DNA from: an uncultured Bulleidia sp.
GTDB lineage: Bacteria; Bacillota_I; Bacilli_A; Erysipelotrichales; Erysipelotrichaceae
DNA: 64,000 bases
Assembly: GCA_934725105.1 (NCBI GenBank)
Contig: CAKVBD010000007.1
Span: 7,747 to 71,746, forward strand
Direction: 5' to 3'
In this document: positions 3,350-8,010 of the stretch, piece by piece
Position numbering within the stretch: position 1 is the stretch's first letter
Layout: each line of letters starts with the position of its first letter
Notes under the pieces: model-generated
What the model saw: the letters and a program-made list of their open reading frames with translations, nothing else
Databases searched by the model: none
What the model was told of the DNA's origin: nothing
Position numbers and translations under genes: made by a program

Positions 3350-4225
3350 ATGACAAGAGTAGATATCGCAATTATTGGCAGTGGTCCTGCAGGACTAGAA
3401 GCAGCTTTGACTGCGAAAAATAGAAATAAATCCATTCAGATCTTTGGTACAAAAGATTTATCTAACAAGATGCAGGTAATTGATCATCCAATTACAAACT
3501 ATCTTGGTTTATCAAATGTAACTGGAAAACAAATGGCTGAAGCATTTTTGAATCAAATGCATGATGCTGGAATTGAAATTACAGAATCTAAAGTGACAAC
3601 AGTATATGCAATGGGTGAGTATTTTGCATTACAGCTAAGTAACAATGAAATGGTGGAAGCAGAAAGTGTGATCCTGGCAAGTGGTGTTGTTGCGGGAAAA
3701 CCATTCAAGGGAGAAAGTGAATTCCTTGGTAGAGGTGTTTCGTATTGTGCAACATGTGATGCACCATTATATAAAGGAAAAGATGTAATTGTTATTGGTG
3801 GTTCAAAGGAAGAAGAAAGTGAAGCGGAATTCCTTGGAGAAGTATGTAATTCTGTAAAGTATATTCCTTTGTATAAAGGTGAGATTGTATTCAAACATGA
3901 CAATATTGTTGTGGTGAATGAAAAACCTGTTGAGATCAAAGGTATGATGAAAGCAAATACTTTAGTGACGGATCAGAATGAATATTCTACAGATTGTGTG
4001 TTTGTATTAAGAGCGGCACAATTTCCAACACAGTTAGTTCCTGGATTACAGGTAGAAGGTAATGCTGTAAAAGTGGATCGTGAAATGAAAACGAATATTC
4101 CTGGTATCTTTGCAGCTGGCGATATTGTTGGCTTGCCATATCAGTTTATTAAATCTGCTGGTGAAGGAAATATTGCGGCAATCTCTGCAGCTGCATATGT
4201 TGATCAAAAGCTAAGAAACAGATGA
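3350..4225 (+). CDS. thioredoxin reductase-like FAD/NAD(P)-dependent disulfide oxidoreductase
   Basis: N-terminal GSGPAGLEAA dinucleotide fold, redox CATCD motif followed by a VIVIGG second Rossmann motif. 291 aa, shorter than canonical TrxB. Confidence 0.7.
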   Translation: MTRVDIAIIGSGPAGLEAALTAKNRNKSIQIFGTKDLSNKMQVIDHPITNYLGLSNVTGKQMAEAFLNQMHDAGIEITESKVTTVYAMGEYFALQLSNNEMVEAESVILASGVVAGKPFKGESEFLGRGVSYCATCDAPLYKGKDVIVIGGSKEEESEAEFLGEVCNSVKYIPLYKGEIVFKHDNIVVVNEKPVEIKGMMKANTLVTDQNEYSTDCVFVLRAAQFPTQLVPGLQVEGNAVKVDREMKTNIPGIFAAGDIVGLPYQFIKSAGEGNIAAISAAAYVDQKLRNR

Positions 4226-4251: not shown

Positions 4252-4794
4252 TTGAAAAACATAGTTATTGTCAAAGTGACTTTAAATAAATTGTCAATTA
4301 GACTATTACGTTTATGCGTACATCGTTATGGTATTGATGCGATGAGTGCAATGGCACAAGGTTTATTTGCAAGCTTATTGATTGGAACAATCATTAAGAC
4401 ATTAGGGCAGCAGACAGGCATTGATTTCTTGGTAAATGCAGGTACATATGCAAGCAGTGTTGCTGGACCTACAATGGCAGCTTCTATTGGCTATGCATTG
4501 CATGCACCACAGCTTGTATTATTCTCATTGATTGCAGTGGGTGCTTCTGCGAATGAATTAGGTGGCGCAGGTGGACCATTGGCTGTTTACTTGATTGCTA
4601 TCGTTGCAAGTGAAGTTGGAAAGCTTGTTTCAAAAGAAACAAAAGTAGATATTCTAGTCACACCTGCAGTAACAATACTTGTTGGTGTTGGATTAAGTGT
4701 ATTATGTGCACCTGCGATTGGTGCGGCTGCAAGTTCTGTTGGAAATTTAATTATGTGGGCTACAGAATTACAGCCATTCTTGATGGGTATTCTT
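4252..4794 (+). pseudogene. PTS EIIC (PTS_EIIC_2 family) N-terminal fragment
   Basis: MAQGLFASLLIGTII...LVTPAVTILVGVGLS...MGIL matches the N-terminal half of PTS_EIIC_2 permeases. Homology ends at 4794, where the antisense of a transposase gene begins. The C-terminal half resumes at 7621. Confidence 0.7.
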
Positions 4795-4795
4795 T

Positions 4796-5417
4796 TATTT
4801 TTCGGAATCTTGCGGCGTACTTTTCTTTTCAGGTCAAGATTGGTGATAGAAACGCCGGCATCCTGAAATACGCCATCTTCGATATATGTATACAGTGTTC
4901 TTTCGGATACTTTGATTTCCGGATGGTTCTGACAGATGACATAGAGAGACTGTCCCTGTTCCAGAAGAGGCTTGATAAGAAGACCGAGATCTCTGATTTC
5001 ATTGACTGTAGCGTTGACACCGGCACGTGCATCACAGAGCATTTCAACATATTCTTTCTGTGCAGCATCCGCTTCATACTTGTACTTGTCGAACCGGCAG
5101 CGCTTGTATCTTTCGCAGCCGTTGCATGCGCCAGGAGAGCGGTCACGTTTTTTACAGATGAAAGGCTTGAAGGAAGGACATTCCTTAGAACAGTGGTGCG
5201 AATACTTGTTAGGACATTTTCCGGCATCAATGCACTCGACAGGATACTTGGATTTGTAAGAGAGAGTGCGATGATTCCTGATTTCCTTTCCAATTGTAGA
5301 TTTGTCTTTGCCAAGCGTATCAGCGATGGACTTTTTAGAAGAATTATTTTCAATACCGCGTTGAATGATTCTGCGTTCGTCATCAGTTAAATGTAAATTC
5401 TTGTTTGATGTTGCCAT
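4796..5417 (-). mobile_element. IS30-family transposase gene, 3'-truncated (HTH and linker only, no DDE domain)
   Basis: MATSNKNLHLTDDERRIIQRGIENNSSKKSIADTLGKDKSTIGKEIRNHR is an IS30-type HTH. The following YxxxxAxxxY and LLEQGQS...TLYTYI segments match the IS30 transposase linker. The protein stops being transposase-like at about 4796, directly against the PTS fragment, and no GHWEGD-type DDE core is present. RBS AAAGGAAA precedes the ATG at 5417. Confidence 0.6.
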
Positions 5418-5845
5418 AGTATGATTTCCTTTCTGAGAGGCAACACATCCAGCTGAGAAAAATAAAACATTATGAAAGAGTAAAATCAACTGGAAGTTGG
5501 TGAAATAGTAAATTCTATTCTGTGTATACGAAAGTGGAATTTGACTTTTCAGTTCAGCTCTCCAGTATAGGTAGTATTTATAAAAATTCTAGACTTATAA
5601 TGAAAATAAATATCATGTATAACGATTAGAATAGCTCAGGAATATACTCTTACTAAAAGCTAATAATTGGCAAATACTATGTACAATAAATGATATGTAA
5701 AGATATTGATATTGTCATGTTTTATGCTAAACTGCGGTTGTAAACATATATGTTTGTGAGGAGCAAATATGAATTATCAAAATAATGCAAGGTATAAGAA
5801 CGGTGACATTTAGTCTTCCATCAATAATATTTTGAAGGAGATTTT

Positions 5846-6292
5846 ATGTTGAAAAAAATAGTATTCGTTTTAGTAATTCTTCTTCTTCTATCGTCATGTA
5901 GTAAAAACACGAAAATACCTTTGGATCAAAGTACTATTGACAAACTAAATTTGGATGATACATCAGTTCATTTATATGCAATCACTATAGATCAGTTGAC
6001 GAATAGCTCAGATTCTAAAGGTCTTAATGGTTATGTATTACTGTTGAGACCAGATTGTAAAGGGTGTCAAACTTTTGTTACAGAGTTTAATGAATACTCA
6101 TCTTCAAATAAAATAAATTCAGATATTTACGTGCTTGATACTACAATATTAACTGATGAGGAAAAAGAAACATTATTCACTGTGTATTCAGTGACTTCTG
6201 TTCCTTCAATTATGGTGTTTGAAAGTGGCAATTTCATTTCATTAGAAGTGGGAATTTCTTCGAAGGGACAGCTATCAAGTATTCTAAAATAA
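5846..6292 (+). CDS. thioredoxin-fold CxxC lipoprotein, putative thiol-disulfide oxidoreductase
   Basis: Lipoprotein signal with lipobox LLSSC. CKGC motif in a roughly 120-aa Trx-like body. RBS AAGGAG 6 nt upstream. First gene of a tight 3-gene cassette. Confidence 0.6.
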   Translation: MLKKIVFVLVILLLLSSCSKNTKIPLDQSTIDKLNLDDTSVHLYAITIDQLTNSSDSKGLNGYVLLLRPDCKGCQTFVTEFNEYSSSNKINSDIYVLDTTILTDEEKETLFTVYSVTSVPSIMVFESGNFISLEVGISSKGQLSSILK

Positions 6293-6306
6293 TTTGAGGA
6301 AAATCT

Positions 6307-6918
6307 ATGATAAAGAGAATATTTTCTGTAATATTAATTATTACCCTTTCGCTCACTTCTTTTATCCCGATTAGCGCTAAAACTTCTATTTCTTCTGAAA
6401 ATGAATTTAAAGAAATTGTTGAAAAATCTAAATACTATAAAGATTATGCAGATGAAGTTATTCAATATGATGTTTTACGTAAAGTTGAGACAGATGAAGG
6501 TACAAGATTTACCATTGAGTATAATCTCAAAACTGAAGAAGATGAATATGTACGAAACTTGGTTTTTATTGGAGATGAAAATGGTGAATTCCTCGAAGTT
6601 CTACTAACAATTGGCAAAGATGATTTGTTATCGGTTAATGATTTGATTAAGCAACATAAGACTAATATTTATATAGAAACAATAGGGCGCGTCTACCAAT
6701 GTATTAAGTATACATGCAAATCATGGTCATATGATGCGTCGTATCAATCTAGTCCTGGTTGCACTGCTATTGTAGGGAAGCCTTGTGAGATTTTTAGTTT
6801 GATGAAAAAAAAGATTGTTGCTGCTATATGTAAATCAGGAGTTTGGGCAGCGTGTCATTTTAGTGTTGATAAAGTTTGTACTGGTTATTATGAAACGTTT
6901 GATGTGTGTGATTTATGA
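6307..6918 (+). CDS. secreted protein with C-terminal 10-cysteine domain (candidate toxin or bacteriocin-like protein)
   Basis: Sec signal peptide ending ISAKTS, acidic middle region, and 10 Cys in the last 80 residues. No recognisable family. RBS GAGGA upstream. The stop overlaps the next gene as ATGA. Confidence 0.55.
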   Translation: MIKRIFSVILIITLSLTSFIPISAKTSISSENEFKEIVEKSKYYKDYADEVIQYDVLRKVETDEGTRFTIEYNLKTEEDEYVRNLVFIGDENGEFLEVLLTIGKDDLLSVNDLIKQHKTNIYIETIGRVYQCIKYTCKSWSYDASYQSSPGCTAIVGKPCEIFSLMKKKIVAAICKSGVWAACHFSVDKVCTGYYETFDVCDL

Positions 6919-7382
6919 AGAAAGTAAATGTGTTTAAATATACTGGTATTTTTATTGGTGTATTGATTATTACTTTTGTTGTTATGACATATGTATCGGA
7001 ATATATTTATAGCATGATTGGTGCAAGAGTTAACTTTAGCTTATCATTTATTGTTATTGAGTTTGTGAAGTTTGGTATCATTTATGATTTGACATTTGGT
7101 TTATTAACTACACTAATATGTATCTACATGTTCAAGAAATTTGTTGACAAATGTAAACAGAATCATAGTTTGATTTACTACCAACTATTAGAACTAGAGA
7201 AAGAATCTTGGTGTTGTTATGTGGTTGTATTAGTCGCAATACTAGCAGGGTTTATGTTAAAGAATCCAGTATTTATTATCTTTGCAAGTTTAGCTATTGT
7301 AATCTTAAATCCAATTTATAGTGTTATCTTAGTGCTAAAGAAAGATTTAAAGAATTTAGCTGTTTCAAAAGCTGCTAGTTGA
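6915..7382 (+). CDS. small 4-TM integral membrane protein (putative immunity protein)
   Basis: 155 aa with four hydrophobic helices. Translationally coupled to the Cys-rich protein gene. Hairpin TTGAGGT/ACCTCAA follows at 7404-7423. Confidence 0.5.
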   Translation: MKKVNVFKYTGIFIGVLIITFVVMTYVSEYIYSMIGARVNFSLSFIVIEFVKFGIIYDLTFGLLTTLICIYMFKKFVDKCKQNHSLIYYQLLELEKESWCCYVVVLVAILAGFMLKNPVFIIFASLAIVILNPIYSVILVLKKDLKNLAVSKAAS

Positions 7383-7620
7383 AGAAAAATGGTGTTTTAT
7401 AATTGAGGTTTATTTTACCTCAAACAACTTAGATACTTAAATTACATGAAGATCAAATGATCAATGAGTTATGTGAAACTCAACTGATTATTTTGGTCTT
7501 TTAATGAGCTAAAACGGTACTTCTTCAGGTCCTTTACTTATGTTGTAACGTAAGCGTCAAATAAATACCGTCTACAAAAATATCTCCAGTCTAGGATAAT
7601 CATATCCAGAAGGGAGATAT

Positions 7621-8010
7621 TTTATATCTGTACTTGTTGGTATTGCGTTAACACTTCCAATTTCTTCTGCCGCAATCTGTGCTGCACTTGGCTTAACAGG
7701 TTTGGCTGGTGGAGCTGCAGTTGCTGGATGTTGTGCACAAATGATTGGCTTTGCCTGCATGAGCTATAAAGAAAATGGTATTGGAGGTCTTGTATCACAA
7801 GGGATTGGTACAAGTACGCTTCAGATGCCAAATATCATCAAGAATCCGAAAACATAGATTCCGCCAATTCTTGCTTCTGCAATTACAGCGTTTGACTGGA
7901 TTGGATTAGTCATGATCTCTTTTATCTTGCCTGCAGTATTAAGTGTTATCTTCTGTAATATTTTACGTAAGAAACAATGGATCAAAGAAAACGATCTTAA
8001 ATTAAACTAA
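7621..8010 (+). pseudogene. PTS EIIC (PTS_EIIC_2 family) C-terminal fragment with in-frame TAG
   Basis: SVLVGIALTLPISSAAICAALGLTGLAGGAAVAGCCAQ continues the family sequence that stops at 4794. An in-frame TAG at 7855-7857 sits where homologs have W. The frame then continues IPPILASAITA... to the TAA at 8008. Confidence 0.65.

Follow-up and report, generated by a model that had tools for sequence, protein, structure and literature searches.

A candidate Sec-dependent bacteriocin-like toxin/immunity cassette with a PedC-like lipoprotein in an uncultured Bulleidia species

Pediocin PA-1, a 44-residue class IIa peptide with a double-glycine leader, a YGNGV box and two disulfides, is exported by an ATP-binding cassette (ABC) transporter with a C39 peptidase and is paired with a cytosolic immunity protein. 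A dedicated extracytoplasmic thioredoxin-fold protein with a CxxC motif, placed beside a multi-disulfide antimicrobial and an immunity gene, is what its operon pedABCD (also BlpG, S. thermophilus) has in common with the subject of this report, a cassette of three genes termed A, B and C. The cassette lies in a stretch of 64,000 nucleotides (nt), hereafter the window, from an uncultured Bulleidia sp. of the Erysipelotrichaceae (assembly GCA_934725105.1, contig CAKVBD010000007.1, positions 7,747 to 71,746 of the forward strand). In contrast to pediocin, the product of the cassette is a Sec pre-pro-protein of 203 amino acids (aa) with 8 Cys and no similarity to pediocin; the cassette lacks an ABC transporter, its putative immunity protein has about four transmembrane (TM) segments, and A is a lipoprotein. 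The sublancin 168 locus (sunA, BdbA/BdbB, SunI) likewise unites an oxidoreductase and a disulfide bacteriocin with an immunity protein of the membrane, and it too is mobile, being part of the SPbeta prophage, whereas the cassette carries no DsbB-like partner, glycosyltransferase or ABC exporter and has no sequence relation to SunA or SunI. An earlier note on this DNA had taken the sublancin BdbA/BdbB layout as its model; the dedicated oxidoreductase beside a disulfide-rich product stands, but the closest precedent is rather PedC with BlpG-type accessory proteins, and C is not DsbB-like.

We regard it as rather probable that the three genes form a bacteriocin-like, Sec-dependent toxin/immunity module that is complete in itself: B would be matured by A and the producer protected by C. 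Computational analysis established the gene structure, the conservation and synteny of the trio, a mosaic pattern between alleles and a deletion variant, and it supports a PedC-like family assignment for A. The PedC-like A, the co-occurrence of the three genes, an island of divergence between alleles and the variant that retained only C all lend weight to the proposal of the earlier note that the locus encodes an undescribed disulfide-rich bacteriocin-like effector with a helper and an immunity or export partner, of which the activity and the immunity are put forward here as inferred functions. Each computational check suggested in that note turned out in its favour.

The three genes and their relatives

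All three genes are on the + strand (A, 148 aa; B, 6307-6918, 203 aa; C, 155 aa; Table 1), and the cassette occurs once in the window. Their coordinates and spacing, in which 14 nt separate A from B and B overlaps C by ATGA, agree with the tight coupling described previously. The good ribosome-binding sites also claimed there are present for A (Shine-Dalgarno sequence GAAGGAG) and B (GAGGAAAA) but not for C, which has no clear Shine-Dalgarno sequence and relies for its start on the overlap with B.

The N-terminus of A, MLKKIVFVLVILLLLSSC, is a lipoprotein signal with the lipobox LLSSC and Cys18 (Pfam LPAM_1, 20.5 bits against a cutoff of 20), and the active site CKGC occupies residues 71-74. 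Together with weak matches to thioredoxin families, all below curated cutoffs (Thioredoxin and Thioredoxin_2, E 0.003-0.004; TIGR01068, E 6e-7), these features bear out the lipoprotein with a thioredoxin-like CKGC site of the earlier note. The Pfam entry PF20207.5, PedC-like, is precomputed on all proteins that are 91-99 % identical to A along its whole length; the same entry carries the name DUF6568 in version PF20207.4. As a reference for PedC we took the pediocin operon of plasmid pSMB74, whose pedC is annotated as "PedC/BrcD family bacteriocin maturation disulfide isomerase". Aligned to this genuine PedC with hhalign, the profile of A gave a probability of 86 % and an E value of 4.7e-6 over 130 columns, in which CKGC falls on CVHC, IYVLD on IYYLD, and the cis-Pro region VPS is aligned. 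Because A aligns to genuine PedC, yet has no match to the NCBIfam PedC/BrcD model, it is best called a divergent PedC-like lipoprotein. PedC itself is a putative thiol-disulfide oxidoreductase, co-production of which raises the potency of recombinant pediocin (PMC4919988).

Protein B carries a Sec-type signal peptide and 8 Cys (residues 132, 137, 152, 160, 175, 183, 191 and 201), so that at most four disulfides can form, and not the five from 10 Cys that had been proposed before. A double-glycine leader, which was also to be looked for, is absent, and none of the class IIa traits (double-glycine leader, YGNGV box, mature peptide of 37-48 aa) was found in B. A profile search against 1.84 billion cluster representatives revealed a family of 66 clusters at E<1e-3, 43 of them below 1e-10, and relatives in metagenomes were scanned for with a 9-sequence alignment; a word-indexed search with B returned only close relatives and a single one at 40 % identity. 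Full-length matches are about 200 aa long and share the layout of B, and the shorter ones look like fragments. Across an alignment of 44 members with identity down to ~20 %, six Cys are invariant, and the other two as well as G157 are at least 90 % conserved. The Cys pattern and the gene order are thus more than chance, since the 8 Cys are kept across these 44 members and the order recurs in many unrelated contigs.

The shared layout consists of a Sec signal, an acidic cystatin/PepSY-like N-domain, a linker usually containing a basic residue (R or K lies 4-8 residues before the first Cys in most members) and a Cys domain of 75 aa. The N-domain is acidic in all 44 members, with a median charge of -10, and the C-domain is near neutral in the family (median +0.7) and slightly basic in B of the window (+1.7). 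The AlphaFold2 model of B built with the family alignment is confident (pLDDT 91.4) and comprises a signal helix, an alpha+beta N-domain (residues ~31-122), a linker of lower confidence (residues 121-130, mean pLDDT 66) and a C-domain made of a hairpin (129-146), three helices (152-184) and a second hairpin (185-202). The best structural matches of the N-domain were a designed cystatin fold, the vibriolysin MCP-02 entry 3nqz and the PepSY-type proteins YpmB and YpeB. Within the family, P0026 (284 aa; locus L054, 3380-4234) has a duplicated N-domain before a single Cys domain and P0065 has a long acidic insertion in the linker. The 203-aa P0007 (L001, L013) is labelled "MAG: Prevotella sp." (MAG, metagenome-assembled genome) in one NCBI record and is on a "Galactobacillus sp." MAG contig in another, and the Prevotella label may be a binning error.

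Neither B nor C gave anything significant against Pfam, NCBIfam, PHROGs or PADLOC. Pfam returned zero matches for B and no match shared among the 44 members, and sequence searches of the PDB with B and with the C-domain profile found none. The C-domain resembles no Pfam family, PDB sequence or solved fold, and the earlier statement that the Cys-rich protein belongs to no recognisable family holds up, with no housekeeping, adhesin or cell-wall match in these five collections. The sole named family with any match to B is the SAR2788 family putative toxin (NCBIfam NF038340), at 17 bits against a cutoff of 50 (E 0.004) over residues 3-86, taking in only the signal peptide and the first part of the N-domain. 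SAR2788 is also extracellular, a protein of Staphylococcus aureus (PMC9973311). Membership of B in this family was rejected given the score below cutoff and matches in 3 of the 44 members. A PADLOC REase_II match (E 0.002) and a lone Endotoxin_N match in one family member were treated as noise, and P0060 (863 aa, six repeat matches) was discarded as a spurious Cys-pattern match, being a Bacteroidetes-type repeat protein.

For C, hydropathy indicates about four hydrophobic segments (residues 10-32, 41-73, 99-117 and 119-141), in line with the four-helix membrane protein of 155 aa reported previously, and it is a candidate immunity protein. It is homologous to a 137-aa gene product encoded downstream of B in L014 (hhalign probability 84 %); no relation was detectable to the equally sized product, with about four TM segments, of L017.

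The trio recurs beyond the window. In the independent B lineages compared (20-80 % identity; loci L001-L011, L014-L021 and L045-L054), a CxxC thioredoxin-like gene, usually a lipoprotein gene, adjoins B in 11 of the 13 lineages for which upstream DNA is present. In 12 of 14, B has a small multi-TM gene next to it, often overlapping the stop codon of B. The co-occurrence in other genomes that the earlier note had asked about therefore extends to relatives of ~20-45 % identity. The CxxC motif varies (CEYC, CEHC, CSYC, CNYC, CDYC, CVHC, CPYC, CGAC), and a lipobox is found in the A homologues of L011, L014, L046, L051 and L054 as well. Several lineages have LytTR, Agr or RRNPP-type regulatory genes beside B: a histidine kinase, a LytTR regulator, AgrB and two AgrD-like peptides in L020, a LytTR regulator in L047, a HATPase_c_5 kinase and LytTR in L054, and an HTH_3/TPR regulator in L014. 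Regulators of these kinds are typical of bacteriocin loci. In L009 and L010 A lacks its 5' end and the cassette stands directly downstream of a lanthipeptide-type cluster, and this region looks like a bacteriocin island.

The cluster in L009 (1-7000) and L010 encodes a LanB-like dehydratase, an ABC ATPase, a UDP-glycosyltransferase, an FMN reductase and a 51-aa open reading frame (ORF), and an IS21 element follows. The AgrD-like paralogues of L020 (MKK[IV]LTRGIGELSKVAKKIAVESPNTVSTFLYYEPK...) are at 2106-2258 and 4984-5106, on either side of the distant B homologue, and the thioredoxin gene of that locus has an extra Cu_amine_oxidN1 domain.

Allele exchange and a deletion variant

Comparison of the window with a second allele, represented by L001 and L004, revealed a sharply bounded island at ~6630-7205 with 48-77 % nt identity, against 93-100 % outside it over most of A, the N-domain of B and the last 57 codons of C. 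The island corresponds exactly to the Cys domain of B and the first 97 codons of C. Between the window and L001, residues 1-112 of B are 96 % identical with a synonymous substitution rate (dS) of 0.10, and residues 113-203 are 60 % identical with a dS of 1.9; for C, residues 1-98 are 38 % identical (dS 0.88) and residues 99-155 are 91 % identical (dS 0.055). Since dS reaches 0.9-1.9 in the island versus 0.05-0.1 outside, the block of toxin domain and immunity half was swapped by recombination. The ratio of nonsynonymous to synonymous rates (dN/dS) is below 1 in every segment compared and lies at 0.16-0.59 inside the island. Among close B variants (>=90 % identical), 11 of 91 positions vary in the linker and C-domain versus 3 of 88 in the N-domain. 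Judged from these sequences, the hallmark of toxin/immunity modules, a variable domain that co-diverges with an adjacent partner between conserved flanks, is present in the cassette.

A second pattern comes from a cassette related to that of the window. In a shared genomic context, L049 and L050 differ from L046 by a clean deletion of 1044 bp, with which A and codons 1-167 of B were lost; the downstream TM gene of 149 aa is intact (96.6 % identity to L046). The deletion is a single event seen in two samples. Retention of the TM gene is an orphan-immunity pattern.

These comparisons bear on the suggestion that C is no immunity protein and would instead serve as a DsbB/BdbB- or VKOR-like membrane oxidase that recycles A, as BdbB does in the sublancin locus, an explanation we consider very improbable. 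Its fit is superficial: about four TM helices in 155 aa, a position beside a thioredoxin-like protein and Cys at residues 69, 80, 100 and 101. These Cys are not conserved across the counterparts of C, however, and they form neither a CxxC motif nor a conserved pair; C69 is lost in L001, the counterparts in L046 and L051 are Cys-free, and those in L017 and L048 lack CxxC. No DsbB or VKOR match was found at E<=1. Moreover, the N-terminal half of C diverges with the toxin domain of B while A stays more than 90 % identical, and C is kept after A has been deleted. Because the Cys of C are not conserved and several counterparts have none, a DsbB/BdbB-like role is ruled out in our analysis.

Insertion site, distribution and maintenance

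The cassette sits within an insertion of 2.8 kb that splits a phosphotransferase system (PTS) EIIC_2 gene cleanly. The N-terminal fragment reaches Pfam profile position 167 (nt ~4797) and the C-terminal fragment picks up at position 166 (nt ~7618), so that no PTS sequence is missing, which confirms the split described previously. The disrupted PTS gene is decaying, as an in-frame TAG at 7855-7857 interrupts its C-terminal fragment. The insert is composed of three parts: a remnant of an IS30-family insertion sequence (IS), the cassette proper (homology from 5681 to 7470/7544) and an IS66-end remnant. The IS30 remnant matches NCBIfam transpos_IS30 only weakly and only over profile positions 12-109 of 267, leaving the catalytic C-terminal part of that model unmatched. 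The IS66-like segment is a scar left from a former position of the cassette beside an IS66 element.

Table 1. Features of the cassette and of its insertion site in the window
Feature	Positions	Strand	Basis or remark
N-terminal fragment of disrupted PTS EIIC_2 gene, left flank	4252..4797	+	Pfam PTS_EIIC_2 E 5e-34, profile positions 2-167 of 327
IS30-family transposase remnant, ~205 N-terminal residues with HTH_38	4800..5417	-	Pfam HTH_38 E 7e-11
Conserved upstream region of the cassette	5681..5845	+	homology with L001-L008 begins at 5681
Gene A, PedC-like thioredoxin-fold lipoprotein, candidate disulfide-forming helper	5846..6292	+	lipobox Cys18, C71-K-G-C74
Gene B, Sec signal peptide, residues 1-24	6307..6378	+	sequence read directly; modelled N-terminal helix, residues 2-17
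Gene B, acidic N-domain, residues 25-127, charge -11, cystatin/PepSY-like alpha+beta fold	6379..6687	+	putative prodomain or delivery domain
Divergence island, window vs L001/L004 allele: B residues ~110-203 and C residues 1-97	6630..7205	+	
Gene B, C-domain, 75 residues, 8 (near-)invariant Cys	6691..6915	+	putative active toxin moiety
Gene C, 155 aa, ~four TM segments, translationally coupled to B	6915..7382	+	hydropathy; candidate immunity protein
IS66-family terminal-sequence remnant, right cassette edge, ~65 bp	7479..7544	+	matches sequence adjoining IS66 transposase genes in L003 and L004
C-terminal fragment of disrupted PTS EIIC_2 gene	7618..8010	+	Pfam PTS_EIIC_2 E 6e-37, from profile position 166

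Related cassettes in other contigs neighbour IS66, IS3, ISL3 and IS21 transposases, an IS1595-like gene and a Mob_Pre relaxase. With IS debris around the cassette in the window and IS or Mob_Pre neighbours elsewhere, the earlier assignment to IS-associated, mobile DNA is upheld. An origin from a phage or plasmid was considered and rejected, as no relatives of B were found in the INPHARED phage, PLSDB plasmid and IMG/VR collections; one distant member, however, is on a plasmid-like contig with Mob_Pre. That cassette (L051, 3064-5122) is carried on a 7.7-kb Mob_Pre/AAA_25 contig and has two tandem thioredoxin-like lipoproteins, with the motif CPYC in one and a degenerate CPNS in the other.

Upstream of A (5690-5845), conservation is ~95 % even when the comparison is with the L004 allele, which is elsewhere 85 % identical. 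This region contains a perfect 14-bp palindrome, AAACATATATGTTT, at 5742-5755 and a mini-ORF of 14 codons, MNYQNNARYKNGDI, at 5769-5813 with the Shine-Dalgarno sequence GAGGAG; the latter is kept in L004 (N2S, TAG->TAA). These elements may act as an operator or a leader peptide. The promoter-like match at 5706-5733 is no better than expected by chance, and a scan for promoters and terminators performed no better than on shuffled sequence. Just upstream of the disrupted PTS gene, a Pyr_redox_2 gene (3350-4225) encodes a thioredoxin-reductase-like flavoprotein of 291 aa. Its nearness to A is probably coincidental, because it belongs to a chromosomal backbone conserved in all sampled contexts.

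The closest genome is that of Erysipelotrichaceae bacterium 7770_A6, with 97.6 % identity over the whole insertion, and the second allele (L001 type) is found in a Galactobacillus MAG. The exact A, B and C proteins are on 386, 105 and at least 1000 contigs, respectively, and the index of the sequence collection lists the same C protein in 3177 blocks. The 24 longest contigs with the exact C protein, Hadza gut samples included, represent ten distinct places, and all ten show one chromosomal locus (AsnA, Pyr_redox_2, PTS remnants, IS30 remnant, A, B, C, MatE, GntR). In every one of them the ORFs of A, B and C are intact, and the PTS and IS remnants vary or decay. Since the ten contexts share this locus with an intact trio, the insertion is old and fixed in the species, rather than a recent and private event, and the cassette is maintained. 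Substitutions among the ten near-identical loci were too few for dN/dS to be interpreted.

A cassette that is bounded by IS30 and IS66-end remnants, interrupts a pseudogenised PTS gene and has a 5'-truncated A in L009 and L010 might also be functionless passenger DNA whose ORFs decay among IS remnants. We find this scarcely credible. The ORFs are intact in the window and in the ten contexts while the neighbouring PTS fragments carry stops, the family is conserved to ~20 % identity with its 8 (near-)invariant Cys, the AlphaFold2 model is confident (pLDDT 91), and dN/dS stays below 1 in each segment of the allele comparison.

Proposed function and comparison with known systems

In a bacteriocin-like module, B would be exported by Sec as a pro-protein of ~20 kDa, and the membrane-anchored A may introduce or proofread up to four disulfides in the emerging C-domain. 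The strongly acidic N-domain might maintain the solubility of the C-domain, which is neutral to basic and partly hydrophobic, or hold it inactive. Cleavage in the flexible linker, at which most members have a basic residue, would then probably release the C-domain, which could attack competing Gram-positive bacteria at their envelope or membrane. For B of the window the predicted cut is after R128 or close to it. Translated together with B, C is predicted to protect the producer in the membrane by intercepting the toxin or by shielding its target. A membrane or envelope target is suggested by the fact that the immunity candidate C is itself membrane-embedded. The module may spread as passenger DNA among IS elements, its toxin-domain/immunity portion being exchanged by recombination. 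From this arrangement we infer antibacterial activity, proteolytic activation, a membrane target and immunity conferred by C.

Alternatively, B could be no toxin and be secreted as a ligand or an inhibitor stabilised by disulfides. It might then, for instance, inhibit proteases by way of its N-domain or serve in signalling or kin recognition, with C as its membrane receptor or anchor and A as a folding helper only. The structural matches of the N-domain include PepSY-type proteins (YpmB, YpeB) that act as inhibitors or regulators, the N-domain is conserved as strongly as the C-domain and is duplicated in P0026, quorum-sensing genes are nearby, and B is unlike any known toxin. A receptor role fits poorly with C, however, which has only about four TM segments, short loops and no output domain. 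The exchange of a variable C-domain with the variable half of its partner typifies toxin/immunity pairs and not inhibitors, and so does a C that outlasts A and B; helpers of the PedC family are known from bacteriocin loci. We therefore judge the ligand or inhibitor explanation unlikely and return to the bacteriocin-like module.

Several observations weigh against that module. Experimental activity is recorded for no member of the B family, and the toxin assignment draws wholly on context, since B is unlike any known bacteriocin family in Pfam and NCBIfam. Protein A matched neither the NCBIfam PedC/BrcD model at E<=1 nor the older PF20207.4 (DUF6568), by which genuine PedC is also unmatched at E<=1. 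The downstream TM proteins are only partly homologous to each other (L014 yes, L017 no), and L047 and L053 have no adjacent thioredoxin gene. An ABC transporter or C39 peptidase was found neither in the cassette nor between the PTS fragments, and the cassette holds no double-glycine leader and no protease gene. With a dN/dS of 0.16-0.59, the island points to allele exchange and not to demonstrable positive selection. Furthermore, the producer is a gut anaerobe, which raises the question of what re-oxidises A.

A bolder extension, conceivable though doubtful in our view, would make B the founder of a new pro-toxin class built like cathelicidins. A cystatin/PepSY-like prodomain would mask a four-disulfide domain of a fold not seen before, gut proteases would cut at the basic residue of the linker, and the freed domain would kill via the membrane. 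The toxin/immunity block would be exchanged between Erysipelotrichaceae genera on IS-borne cassettes and might thereby shape strain competition in a highly prevalent human-gut species.

If B is antibacterial, its family would be a group of bacteriocins invisible to genome-mining tools, which find no Pfam or NCBIfam match in it, and its four-disulfide scaffold would be unlike solved folds. PedC-type oxidative maturation would then extend from small, ABC-exported class II peptides to Sec-exported pro-proteins. From its abundance (at least 1000 contigs, 3177 blocks), the cassette may affect competition at the strain level in a widespread Erysipelotrichaceae species. The sharply bounded swap of toxin domain and immunity half offers a natural two-allele system for mapping the determinants of specificity, and four extracellular disulfides in an obligate anaerobe pose a question for anaerobe redox biology.

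Besides pediocin and sublancin, two further groups of described systems resemble the cassette in part. In polymorphic toxin and pore-forming colicin systems, a conserved N-terminal part is joined to a variable C-terminal toxin with an adjacent immunity gene, and immunity proteins of the colicin A/E1 type have 3-4 TM helices. The cassette shares with them a conserved N-terminal part, a swapped C-domain with the adjoining half of its TM partner and an orphan immunity-like gene that was retained. In contrast to the colicin systems, its putative toxin is a Sec protein of 20 kDa in a Gram-positive member of the Erysipelotrichaceae, no homology connects the two, and only half of the immunity candidate is swapped. 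The masking proposed for the N-domain of B would have a parallel in the cathelicidins, drawn by analogy.

PAMP, the protease-activated antimicrobial peptide of Propionibacterium jensenii, is made as a precursor of 198 aa with a signal peptide of 27 aa and a C-terminal active peptide of 6383 Da (~64 aa), and it is antimicrobial only after extracellular proteolysis (PMC5756557). Its size and layout (signal peptide, N-terminal pro-region, C-terminal active part) match those of B, whereas no sequence similarity to B was detected and the cleavage of B is predicted. PAMP is not known to be disulfide-rich or to be served by a dedicated oxidoreductase. Searches of the literature for descriptions of the system found none, and those for DUF6568 and for four-disulfide bacteriocins returned nothing relevant. 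The logic of a bacteriocin joined to a dedicated thiol-disulfide oxidoreductase and an immunity protein is known; the toxin family and the fold of its C-domain, the pairing of Sec export with both a folded prodomain and a helper of PedC type, and the swap of half an immunity gene appear to be undescribed.

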